Virus genome (UHGV): UHGV-0099063
Length of the DNA stretch: 15,441 bases
Source of the DNA: a virus
Strand: one strand, 5' to 3'
Positions 792 through 5,925 of the stretch are shown here, piece by piece (position 1 is the first letter of the stretch; every line of letters starts with the position of its first letter). Made by a program: the position numbers and the translations under genes. The notes beneath the pieces are model-generated. The model was not told the origin of the DNA and ran no database searches. It saw only the letters and a list, made by a program, of their open reading frames with translations.

Positions 792-1304
792 TTAAACGGT
801 ATGATATTTCATTCTGGCTGCCTCAAAAGCCGCAGCGGCAAGTTCGGCAGTGTCATGGTATCCAAGGTTAATACACTTTCCAGACGCATTAATTCTTGCT
901 CTCCATTTCCCGTACTTAGCATCCCAAGACACGCCACGGTATCCAGATTTATTATTCTTCTGAATTTTCCTGTTTTGCATATTTTCGGAATGAGTGACAA
1001 GACGAAGATTTGATATCCGGTTATCTGTTCTTACCCTGTTGATGTGATCAATAAAACCATCGGGCATGGTGCCATAAACAATCAACCATGCCAGTCTGTG
1101 AGCAGGGCATGCTTTACCATTAATCATAATCATTAAATACCCATCAGAATTTATTGATGAGCATTTCTTGAAAGCAAAACGAGAGTTCCATGTCAAAGTG
1201 GTCCTCTCTCTCCCCTGCCTCCATCTCCAGTGAAAGTCGCCTGATGATGGATTGTAATCAACAACAGAAAGCACCATTTCTGGCGTTAATTTTATTTCTT
1301 TCAT
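792..1304 (-). CDS. HNH endonuclease (HNH_3 motif plus AP2-type DNA-binding domain), homing-endonuclease-like
   Basis: 170 aa ORF with FIDHINRVRTDNRISNLRLVTHSEN (HNH_3-type catalytic motif) followed by GYRGVSWDAKYGKWRARI...LGYHDTAELAAAAFEAAR (AP2-like). Start 1304-1302 with AAGG 8 nt upstream. Lies between the candidate tR' and the lysis genes. Confidence 0.85.
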   Translation of the reverse strand: MKEIKLTPEMVLSVVDYNPSSGDFHWRWRQGRERTTLTWNSRFAFKKCSSINSDGYLMIMINGKACPAHRLAWLIVYGTMPDGFIDHINRVRTDNRISNLRLVTHSENMQNRKIQKNNKSGYRGVSWDAKYGKWRARINASGKCINLGYHDTAELAAAAFEAARMKYHTV

Positions 1305-2848: not shown

Positions 2849-3053
2849 TTACCTTCCCTCGCAATTGAAGAATTGACTGAAGGTCTTTTTTAATAAATAT
2901 GCGAGTGCGAATTGAGCAGTAGTTTTCCTTCATTCTGGCGTAGTAATAGTCCTTTCTTTGCTTAAGTTTGTTGGCATCCGCTGTCATCCAGTCTTTTACA
3001 GCAAACTTAATTAGCCAGCGGTGGCAGAGATACCATTTCAGGTAATCACTCAT
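2841..3053 (-). CDS. hypothetical nin-region protein, 70 aa
   Basis: ORF translationally coupled on both sides: its ATG (3053-3051) lies inside the last codons of ninF and its stop overlaps the ybcO-like start. No family recognised. Confidence 0.55.
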   Translation of the reverse strand: MSDYLKWYLCHRWLIKFAVKDWMTADANKLKQRKDYYYARMKENYCSIRTRIFIKKDLQSILQLRGKVNG

Positions 3054-3222
3054 CGTCTTCTTCCTCGTACATTGAGCTATTCGGATCGCTCATCAGTTCT
3101 GCGCAGCAATCGGAGCACACGTGAACTTCCAGCACATGCAGCTTCTGACCGCAGTTAGCGCACGTTAAAGCTCGCTCGACGCTTTCTTTCTGGTATTGAA
3201 GGGATTGGGATGGGCTAAGCAT
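3046..3222 (-). CDS. ninF: NinF
   Basis: Not in the ORF track (58 aa). Minus-strand translation from ATG 3222-3220 gives MLSPSQSLQYQKESVERALTCANCGQKLHVLEVHVCSDCCAELMSDPNSSMYEEEDDE, essentially lambda NinF as recalled. Confidence 0.8.
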   Translation of the reverse strand: MLSPSQSLQYQKESVERALTCANCGQKLHVLEVHVCSDCCAELMSDPNSSMYEEEDDE

Positions 3223-3580
3223 TATTGGCGTCCTGCATCATGAGAAAGACAATCATGGCGGCGCGGAGGGGATTTTCATGTATAGCTCGCTTAGATTTAC
3301 AGTAGGCCACACCGCGTGCACCCCACTCGTCTTCATCGAGATTGATAATGCTAATCCTGTATTTTTCAATAATCGGCCATGCGTCTGCTGGGTTTGCGCA
3401 TGGGTTAAAGGAACCGCGCTCAACTTCTACTTCAACTGCGTCTCCGTTTACAATGTCTCCCTCAAATGAGACAAACACCATATCGCCATTCTCACCTTCT
3501 TTGTAATCCGGTGATCCGTTATGAATAGCTTCGAATACCGCCACGTTAATTTCAAAATCACTTAACTGTGAATAATCCAT
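3215..3580 (-). CDS. hypothetical nin-region protein (possibly YbcN-like)
   Basis: ORF in the track starts at a GTG (3622); the likely true start is ATG 3580-3578 (MDYSQLSDFEIN...), preceded by GAGGAA at 8-nt spacing and 2 nt after the ninE stop. C-terminal NPLRAAMIVFLMMQ looks familiar from nin-region proteins but is not firmly assigned. Confidence 0.55.
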   Translation of the reverse strand: MDYSQLSDFEINVAVFEAIHNGSPDYKEGENGDMVFVSFEGDIVNGDAVEVEVERGSFNPCANPADAWPIIEKYRISIINLDEDEWGARGVAYCKSKRAIHENPLRAAMIVFLMMQDANNA

Positions 3581-3582
3581 TG

Positions 3583-3759
3583 TCATTTCCTCGCACGATG
3601 TCTTAGCCACCGGATATCCCACAGGTGAGCCGTGTAATTGAAGGTTTTTACGTCAGATTCTTTTGGGATTGGCTTGCGTTTATTTCTGGAGCGTTTCGTT
3701 GGAAGGTATTTGCAGTTTTCGCAGATGATGTCGGTGATACTTCGTCGCTGTCGTCTCAT
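3583..3759 (-). CDS. ninE: NinE
   Basis: From ATG 3759-3757: [58 protein letters not shown], matching lambda/DLP12 NinE as recalled. Its ATG overlaps the TGA of the upstream HNH ORF. Confidence 0.85.
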
Positions 3760-4358
3760 GCCGCCCTGTCTCCCCATCTTGCTTTCATTGTTTCATTTGC
3801 AAATCGCCAGAATCTTCCTTTGTGATATGAGCTTTCGCCATTACAGCAACGACTAATTGACGAACTATCAAATCCTTCTCTGACAGCATCCATAGCTGCT
3901 TCATAATAAACCTCCTCCCCAGTTTTCATGTCAGTAGAAATAACAGCTTTACTGGCAGGATGATCACCACTAAATTTACCTAGCGATATAGGTATTCTTC
4001 CATTTTGTTTATATCCGTGCTTTGAGTTTTCAGAATGTGATACCCATTCAAGGTTTTCAGCCCTATTGTCATCTCTTTGCCCATTTTTGTGATTAACTAC
4101 CAAGCCATCACAGAACCCTGTACAGAATGCTTTCGCAACTATCCTGTGGGCGCTGTATTTCTTACCGTATACCTTTATTTGAAGATATCCTGTCGACTTG
4201 CACTTGAATGGTTTTACGCTAGTGCCATTAATTATTTTCTTATATGGCCTCTGTCTGGTTGATGTTACTGTAATTTCCCTCGTAATAGACCTGAAATTTC
4301 CTTTATTGCTAACCTGATAAAATGGAATTCCTTCGATATCTACCCAAACCTCAATCAT
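3756..4358 (-). CDS. HNH endonuclease (NUMOD4-like N-terminus plus HNH_3 motif), inserted into the 3' end of ninB
   Basis: 200 aa; N-terminal [20 protein letters not shown] (NUMOD4-like), then [25 protein letters not shown] (HNH_3). GGAGG lies 4 nt upstream of the ATG, inside the last ninB codons. The last nine residues, KARWGDRAA, match the recalled C-terminus of lambda NinB. Confidence 0.8.
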
Positions 4359-4767
4359 AATTCCTCCATTCGCTAAGATGAATTGAGTTCATGGCACAAT
4401 ATGCTTCTATGTAGTCCATTATTTCGGATATTTTTTTTACAGATAGAGTCGCCGTACTCTCTCTGATGTTTATTAGCTCACCTTCTAACCCTGATATAAT
4501 CTCAGGGTGCTGGTTGGTTGCAATCTGCCAACCAGAAACGAATAACCCCTTCCAAAACTCAATATTTCTTGCTTTTCCATGATATGTAGCCTTCTTACTT
4601 ATTTCAGATAGCATCGCGTGAAGGCGTGCATTTTGCCGAATGCTGCGGTTGCGTTCCTGAATGGTTACTACGATTGGTTTGGTTGGGTCTGGAAGAATTT
4701 GCTGGATAGCTTGAATGGCGTTCTGCTGATGGATGGGGCTTCTTAGTTCAAATGTTAGTTTCCTCAT
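4351..4767 (-). CDS. ninB: NinB recombination protein, with its natural C-terminus replaced
   Basis: From ATG 4767-4765: MRKLTFELRSPIHQQNAIQAIQQILPDPTKPIVVTIQERNRS..., near-identical to the recalled lambda NinB N-terminus. Ends ...HLSEW-RNYD-stop rather than the recalled ...[12 protein letters not shown]. Confidence 0.8.
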   Translation of the reverse strand: MRKLTFELRSPIHQQNAIQAIQQILPDPTKPIVVTIQERNRSIRQNARLHAMLSEISKKATYHGKARNIEFWKGLFVSGWQIATNQHPEIISGLEGELINIRESTATLSVKKISEIMDYIEAYCAMNSIHLSEWRNYD

Positions 4768-5313: not shown

Positions 5314-5925
5314 TTATCTTTTTTTAACACGCTTTCGAGTCCTTTTAGATTTTTCCTTAAGATATTCCGCAAGTTTATCCTCATCATTATTAAATTGAGA
5401 TAAAAGCTCATGCTCGCAATTAAGTGCTTTACTCGCATAAGTTCCATATAGTTTCTTTCTTGCTAGTGCTGCTATGAATGCTGCATCTTCTTTGCTATCG
5501 AAATACCCTAACGATATTGTCTTATTTTTATAACCAACATAAGACTTCCACCTGCCAGTTGTCTTATCCCAAGACACTCCAATCGCACCGGATGTGTTTA
5601 ACCTATTCCCTACAATGTTTCTTGCATTCTGCTCCTCTGTTGCCAGTCTTAGATTTGAAATCCTATTGTCAAGTCTGTTCCCATTTACATGATCAATAAA
5701 CTTAGGAGGCCATTTTTTGTATACATAGAACCAAGCAAGTCTATGCGCATAATACAAAACATTATTTATGCTAATGCATATATAACCACCACTAACACCT
5801 CCAGCAATACTACCTTTTACTCTTACTACTGAATTTGTTTTTAGCCATTTAAATATTCCTGTTTCTGAGTCATATGATAATGTTGACAGAAGCTCATCGT
5901 GATCAATTAGTTTTTTTATTCGCAT
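5314..5925 (-). CDS. HNH endonuclease (HNH_3 plus AP2-type domain), paralogue of the 792-1304 gene
   Basis: 203 aa; AHRLAWFYVYKKWPPKFIDHVNGNRLDNRISNLRLATEEQN (HNH_3) and GVSWDKTTGRWKSYV...LGYFDSKEDAAFIAALAR (AP2-like); collinear with HNH 1. Strongly AT-rich; no clear Shine-Dalgarno before its ATG. Confidence 0.8.
   Translation of the reverse strand: MRIKKLIDHDELLSTLSYDSETGIFKWLKTNSVVRVKGSIAGGVSGGYICISINNVLYYAHRLAWFYVYKKWPPKFIDHVNGNRLDNRISNLRLATEEQNARNIVGNRLNTSGAIGVSWDKTTGRWKSYVGYKNKTISLGYFDSKEDAAFIAALARKKLYGTYASKALNCEHELLSQFNNDEDKLAEYLKEKSKRTRKRVKKR

Follow-up and report, generated by a model that had tools for sequence, protein, structure and literature searches.

As free-standing endonucleases of phages spread, the DNA beside them is co-converted, and they are also able to split genes [PMC2988022]; both marker exclusion and intronless homing with co-conversion have been described for those of the T-even phages [PMC2988022, PMC2790892]. 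The T-even Seg and Mob endonucleases are encoded beside a conserved gene, endonuclease-free alleles exist at the same locus and the flank travels along with the endonuclease gene [PMC2988022, PMC2790892]. The HNH gene described here, which lies between ninB and ninE in a lambdoid nin region, resembles them in its place beside a conserved gene and in a flank that travels with it; endonuclease-free alleles are known at its locus too, but they are other ninB alleles. However, the flank that co-travels in the T-even phages amounts to a few polymorphisms, whereas here it is the body of ninB, a whole divergent allele. T-even endonuclease genes also have their own stop codons and often their own promoters or regulatory hairpins; in contrast, the HNH gene described here has translational coupling to the genes before and behind it, and its last codons are those of the host gene. 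Gene-splitting insertions such as mobE in nrdA of phage Aeh1, mobA in gene 60 of T4 [PMC2988022] and that in nrdD of FelixO1-like phages [PMC4837284] likewise put an endonuclease gene within a coding region or at its end and leave gene fragments behind. While in those cases both fragments stay functional parts of one enzyme, the NinB described here appears complete on its own, and the nine-codon fragment next to it seems to come from a displaced allele and is read together with the endonuclease.

With regard to the enzyme itself, the closest known system is the homing endonuclease I-HmuI of Bacillus phage SPO1, to which the protein can be aligned both in its HNH catalytic core and in its C-terminal region for DNA binding. 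I-HmuI is intron-encoded, whereas the HNH gene in the nin region is free-standing in an operon, and its product differs from I-HmuI in having a NUMOD4 N-terminus, an Asn in place of the Asp that precedes the catalytic His, and a ninB-derived extension of nine residues. A physical tie between a NinB-family protein and an HNH nuclease is also known from the Orf/NinB-HNH fusions (DUF968) of Gram-positive phages [PMC4118853, PMC2034487]. These are single polypeptides with a zinc-finger HNH domain at the C-terminus of NinB, in contrast to the two overlapping genes described here, of which the HNH gene has the architecture of a homing endonuclease. The HNH gene is not a new kind of element, but its manner of settling in a tightly coupled operon appears to be undescribed, and no paper describing a ninB-stub fusion was found in the literature.

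A coupled HNH gene between ninB and ninE

The window, that is, the whole stretch of 15,441 nucleotides analysed (UHGV virus genome UHGV-0099063), carries on its minus strand the early-right region of a lambdoid E. coli prophage that resembles HK022 and HK629. Its makeup is mosaic, with the best phage record covering at most 43% of it; its closest relative for gene P (98.3%) and from ninE onward (98.4%) is HK629, and its ninE is 98.4% identical to those of HK629 and N31. The features of the ninB–ninE region are collected in Table 1.

Table 1. Features of the ninB–ninE region, in window coordinates.
Feature	Position	Strand	Evidence or remark
ninB, short-tailed 'type-2' allele, 138 aa, complete	4351..4767	-	PF05772, E 2.5e-40 (profile positions 2-129 of 131)
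54-nt block, ninB nt 73-126 (codons 25-42), common to lambda-type ninB	4642..4695	-	putative left recombination joint
type-2-specific ninB body, codons 43-138, low GC	4351..4641	-	without DNA similarity to lambda-type past nt 126
GGAGG ribosome-binding site of the HNH gene, within ninB codons W134-R135	4363..4367	-	read from sequence
ATGATTGA, overlap of HNH start and ninB stop, 8 nt	4351..4358	-	sequence
HNH ORF, 200 aa, including the C-terminal stub	3756..4358	-	sequence
HNH endonuclease proper, residues 1-191: NUMOD4, HNH_3, I-HmuI-like C-terminal DNA-binding region	3786..4358	-	Pfam, phmmer
stub of apparently displaced lambda-type ninB, KARWGDRAA plus stop, read as HNH C-terminal extension	3756..3785	-	9/9 aa, 28/30 nt
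ATGA, overlap of HNH stop and ninE start, couples both	3756..3759	-	sequence
ninE	3583..3759	-	PF05322, E 5.8e-43

The original prediction had described a ninB ending in HLSEWRNYD, an HNH ORF that begins inside the last ninB codons with its own GGAGG, a tail on this ORF made of the C-terminus of lambda NinB, and an ATGA coupling to ninE that was kept. All of these observations were borne out, the GGAGG standing 4 nt ahead of the HNH ATG. The tail corresponds to the last nine ninB codons plus the stop, in the ninB frame, when compared with the ninB 3' ends of lambda and E. coli N31; its 28 matches in 30 nt to both are far beyond chance, and homology runs on from there into ninE at about 98–100%. 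It likewise holds that a gene of the homing-endonuclease type sits within the nin operon with polarity unbroken. How the gene came to lie there, as the original prediction interpreted it, is only partly supported.

The Pfam matches of the HNH protein comprise NUMOD4 (E 1.5e-13, residues 3–63) and HNH_3 (E 8.2e-12, residues 69–112), and phmmer aligns residues 55–186 to residues 36–170 of the 174-residue I-HmuI chain (1U3E; E 4.7e-14). In this alignment the C-terminal region corresponds to I-HmuI residues 136–170, and the match of residues 145–181 to the I-HmuI NUMOD-like profile PF22083 scores 19.3 bits, below the curated cutoff of 27. The HNH motif aligns to VVDHKDG..NLRW..IN of I-HmuI, and among 26 homologues H90, N98, N102 and N111 are invariant or nearly so. 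A metal-binding Asp stands ahead of the catalytic His in I-HmuI, but the window protein has Asn there (VNH), which counts against a working homing endonuclease; this Asn is nearly invariant within the subfamily, and the exchange is probably a subfamily trait rather than a sign of decay. Values of dN between 0.15 and 0.46 at saturated dS indicate that the gene is under purifying selection. Public records of Stx phages, SEN22 and many E. coli prophages already label it as an HNH endonuclease.

We hypothesize that a free-standing, I-HmuI-like homing endonuclease cassette replaced the body of a resident ninB and now uses the stop and restart left over from it, a reading to which we give a probability of roughly 0.6. 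Within this reading, the comparisons set out below make the proposed anatomy of cassette and stub highly probable; whether the protein has endonuclease activity, acts at a target site in ninB and has driven its own spread we regard as about evenly balanced.

The probably native end of NinB and the tail of the endonuclease

Residues 1–130 of the window NinB align to residues 1–126 of lambda Orf (1PC6; phmmer, E 1.4e-31), and the central-channel residues named for NinB/Orf (R41, Q45, N46 and W/H50) [PMC4118853] are present as R41, Q45, N46 and H50. The dN/dS of 0.06 between the window ninB and that of SEN22 can be read only qualitatively, as purifying selection, with dS saturated for nearly all pairs. 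The protein ends at the equivalent of lambda A134 and lacks the C-terminal helix with W137, a residue that contributes to DNA binding in lambda Orf. Since this helix is absent in all short-tailed NinBs, including that of the endonuclease-free HK629, its absence is a trait of the subfamily and not damage. Judged by its sequence, the window NinB thus belongs to a separate short-tailed clade, not to the lambda-type proteins with a lost tail, and it is probably intact and functional.

The end of this NinB also looks native. In HK629, NinB ends in ..FTDRRYE-stop and is ATGA-coupled straight to ninE; two further endonuclease-free NinBs end in ..DRRYD-stop (L078) and ..DWRKYDMYS-stop (L080), and 18 nt of the latter are identical to the ninB/endonuclease junction of L007. 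A GGAGG..ATG element is also found at short-tailed ninB ends ahead of non-endonuclease genes, and in endonuclease-free relatives the short NinB end carries the ribosome-binding site and start of whichever gene comes next. We conclude that RNYD-stop is most plausibly the native end of the window NinB. A degenerate NUMOD4 remnant ('SNDNRRS') seen by eye 3' of the short-tailed ninB of L078 was dropped as unsupported. In two viral contigs (L039 and L040) the locus is one base shorter and NinB is truncated (..SVKKYPK-stop) at a run of eight A residues that lies at 4431–4438 on the minus strand of the window; this could be either a sequencing error or homopolymer slippage.

The KARWGDRAA extension, on the other hand, appears foreign to the endonuclease. 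I-HmuI stops four residues past the position equivalent to WRF186, and the 26 HNH homologues usually stop 4–8 residues past WRF, so the extension lies outside the enzyme fold. The SEN22 orthologue, which is 78% identical, ends in ..FADERMAA-stop without KARWGDR. The last 12 nt or so of the stub are also found at a dam–ninE junction and are therefore part of the ninE translation-initiation region. Within the stub, an in-frame ATG (AAG ATG GGG) is a possible alternative start of ninE, which would add six residues (3583–3777, minus strand).

The original prediction had accounted for the tail differently: the ninB of this allele was once long-tailed, and an endonuclease gene of about 580 bp inserted in frame between its W and K codons, so that RNYD-stop would be a new tail and KARWGDRAA the ancestral tail of this very NinB. 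In its favour, the tail does come from the 3' end of a ninB and is read in the ninB frame, W134 can be placed against lambda W137 by MAFFT, and endonuclease-free type-2-like NinBs with long W..RWG.A-stop tails exist (L094). Longer ninB-like tails occur on endonucleases elsewhere, for instance at the end of the HNH-AP2 protein of L007; the endonuclease tails of L007 and L008 (..AKEQAIDWARRFGETKRAA-stop) are collinear with a long ninB tail split right after ..LED, and for these two loci the data are still collinear with an ancient, simple insertion into a ninB with a long tail. For the window, several points speak against the account. Short-tailed NinBs without an endonuclease have RNYD-like ends and the GGAGG..ATG element as native features, as set out above. 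The stub matches the end of lambda NinB, as the alignment called for by the original prediction was expected to reveal, but joining W134 to W137 is not collinear in phmmer, where the extended alignment places LSEW opposite lambda WSDE and not opposite LEW. Furthermore, the stub is lambda-type DNA, whereas the ninB body cannot be aligned to lambda-type ninB past nt 126, which argues against a tail that belonged to this body.

Base composition points the same way. As predicted, 3786–4365 is GC-poor (38.4%, versus 48.3% for the tail plus ninE), but so is the ninB body (38.9% for codons 51–134, versus 46.7% for the first 150 nt of ninB); the foreign low-GC block includes the ninB body, beginning at codon 43, and the GC contrast was rejected as support for an insert of 580 bp. 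The proposed search for an empty site of this allele was also negative in each of the four collections used. Among 50,697 phage records searched with BLAST, all 65 that matched the type-2 ninB body carried the HNH gene. When 5,426 E. coli genomes were searched with a synthetic query made of ninB (..W134), tail and ninE, none matched it in one piece; the matches were either occupied loci in two pieces or lambda-type ninB–ninE junctions from the shared GAATGG onward. Degenerate patterns for the empty junction matched neither the 2.9 million viral contigs, which contain the occupied junction 27 times, nor the 100,044 GTDB species genomes. Endonuclease-free ninB–ninE junctions are known in N31 and HK629, but with other ninB alleles, so that a comparison within one background gives no reading on homing. 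Taken with these results, a simple insertion between W and K is quite unlikely for the window.

Extent and movement of the cassette

The first 126 nt of the window ninB are lambda-like, and nt 73–126 are 100% identical to lambda and N31; phage APC_JM3.2 differs from the window at one base (nt 86) within this 54-nt block. From nt 127 the allele types diverge, with no DNA similarity to lambda-type ninB afterwards and a protein identity of about 30% over the body, until identity with lambda-type ninB resumes exactly at the K codon. On the left side, a global MAFFT alignment of the window with N31 was unusable and an ungapped comparison in codon register was used instead. From these boundaries, the foreign low-GC unit would be about 856 bp long (4641–3786) and would consist of ninB codons 43–138 plus the HNH gene, in place of the 580-bp gene alone.

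This unit, which spans ninB nt 127 through HNH codon 191, shows 98.7–100% identity across three settings: it precedes ninE in the window, dam in P27 and about 60 Stx phages, and ninC in APC_JM3.2, and the same cassette body is joined to two different ninB 5' variants. The nine-codon stubs differ between phages by up to 5 of 30 nt, whereas the cassette differs by about 1.3%, and the stubs resemble various lambda-type tails. The stubs therefore belong to the recipient side of the joint, varying as they do more than the cassette. As far as such a comparison of sequences can show it, the cassette has moved between backgrounds.

According to the replacement reading, a resident ninB of the lambda type would have lost its body to the cassette. 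On the left, the joint would lie in the 54-nt block common to all these ninB alleles, and the right joint would be an illegitimate or microhomology junction (AATG/AAAGC) just ahead of the resident codon K138. In this way the last nine codons of the resident gene, its stop and its ATGA restart site would have survived, to be translated as the C-terminal extension of the endonuclease; the surviving stub would supply the endonuclease with a stop codon and keep ninE translationally coupled. As for the driving force, the endonuclease may nick or cut endonuclease-free ninB alleles near their 3' end, after which repair of the break would copy the endonuclease gene together with the linked, uncuttable ninB body, i.e. 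intronless homing with co-conversion. Because of the position of the right joint, the cut is predicted to fall in the 3' end of lambda-type ninB near the W137/K138 codons, and a cleavage site there is a testable prediction. Such a mechanism may also account for a NinB clade that has only been met together with an endonuclease. In that case, the classic mosaicism of lambdoid nin regions, those of Shiga-toxin phages included, would stem in part from allele replacement driven by endonucleases.

Linkage with NinB and parallel loci

The 12 lineages of the short-tailed NinB clade with readable context, from E. coli, Salmonella, Yersinia, Pantoea and metagenomes, all have an overlapping HNH gene at the ninB stop (56–100% identity). 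The gene is of the NUMOD4 type in nine and of the HNH-AP2 type, at the same start position, in the other three; behind NinBs that are more distant, the next gene is mostly ninG or another gene. Conversely, a NinB-family gene lies directly upstream in 23 of 28 informative HNH loci (at least 44% identity), the upstream gene being DUF1367 in four and an unknown ORF in one, and HNH relatives beyond the 44% threshold are found in unrelated contexts. The divergences of NinB and HNH correlate (r = 0.85). In the four DUF1367 loci (L119, L121, L122 and L127; about 1544–2585), a NUMOD4-HNH gene of the same subfamily (63–68% identical) follows DUF1367 in the ninB position, with tails such as ..WRFADERMAA-stop. 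Neither hhalign nor BLASTP detected any similarity of DUF1367 to NinB or YbcN, and with both searches empty a hidden relationship of DUF1367 to these proteins is not claimed.

That all 12 lineages carry the endonuclease and that the divergences correlate runs counter to the homing reading and would also fit a functional partnership. In such a partnership, the HNH protein would not be selfish but the dedicated partner of the short-tailed NinB/Orf in a coupled 'nick and load' module, the tail being incidental: the HNH nickase would make a lesion at which the short-tailed NinB loads RecA or Red-beta, and the two would form a co-evolving recombination-initiation module. The 12 of 12 NinB lineages with an overlapping HNH gene (at least 56% identity), the upstream NinB-family genes and the correlation under purifying selection all favour this possibility, as do the NinB/Orf-HNH fusions of Gram-positive phages, for which collaboration has been proposed [PMC2034487, PMC4118853]. 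If it were true, the pair would be a split-gene counterpart of those fusions, and the repeated capture of stubs would reflect a module that displaces stand-alone ninB alleles across Proteobacterial lambdoid phages. However, the architecture of the HNH protein is that of sequence-specific homing endonucleases, an unrelated HNH-AP2 architecture takes the same start codon in three NinB lineages, and in four loci the HNH gene lies behind DUF1367 and not NinB. Lambda-type and HK620-type NinBs work without an HNH protein, and the Gram-positive fusions use a different, zinc-finger HNH. In addition, one E. coli prophage (L015) has its HNH gene broken after about codon 47 by an insertion of about 1.2 kb (3049–4246), presumably an insertion sequence, and the endonuclease is therefore dispensable in a prophage. 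A dedicated partnership is thus unlikely, and we consider the co-evolving nick-and-load module to be equally unlikely.

Two further loci have a makeup that fits the replacement of ninB segments by endonuclease cassettes. In L065 (2492–3690), a NinB allele ending in ..IEIKDLT-stop comes first, next an HNH-AP2 gene that has a stop of its own, and last an out-of-frame stub of 11 codons (KFNDRWGFYGR-stop). This stub equals the last 11 codons of a ninB allele that is intact in the endonuclease-free L076, with homology at 97% beginning exactly there. The KFND/IKD duplication, in which the stub repeats a segment already present in the intact NinB, argues for replacement and against simple insertion. 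In L041 (1912–2905), an HNH-AP2 endonuclease is joined in frame to the start of ninB and its first 32 codons; behind it come a complete NinB, the N-terminus of which is a divergent replacement (MKCVKYHLTNES..QRNRS), and then a NUMOD4 HNH gene with a KARWGDRVA tail, the 5' fusion being the mirror image of the 3' stub in the window. In these cases endonucleases seem to arrive with a replacement copy of the neighbouring segment, their reading frames running into what is left of the displaced allele or starting from it, and the borrowed stop or start, together with the restart signal, preserves polarity. A general rule is suggested by three independent examples, in which two families of endonuclease are represented.

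The same joints could also be created by ordinary mosaic recombination among lambdoid phages, without any action of an endonuclease; ninB-HNH would then be a passenger module, the HNH gene would have no role in its spread and the stub would be a chance in-frame join. The patchwork nature of the window speaks for this, as do the recurrence of the last stub nucleotides at a dam–ninE junction and the placement of the joints at conserved sequences, which lambdoid phages usually show. Yet the combination of an endonuclease with a replacement ninB segment and a stub left by the displaced allele recurs three times independently, with endonucleases of two families, and the HNH gene is under strong purifying selection. 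Moreover, another HNH-AP2 gene in the window has a clean empty site in HK629, from which it follows that endonuclease genes are actively colonising this phage lineage. Mosaic recombination with an inert HNH gene is accordingly very unlikely.

This second endonuclease gene (5314–5925, minus strand; 203 aa, GC 34.8%) encodes HNH_3 plus AP2 and splits a small ORF (MTIYITELI../..GLLVIAGLF..) that is intact in HK629. By comparison of the two sequences, HK629 thus carries a true empty site for this element, unlike for the ninB-linked one. A third ORF with HNH_3 plus AP2 (792–1304, minus strand; 170 aa, GC 41%) lies downstream of a 172-aa ORF (1499–2017), so that the prophage holds three endonuclease genes within about 5 kb.
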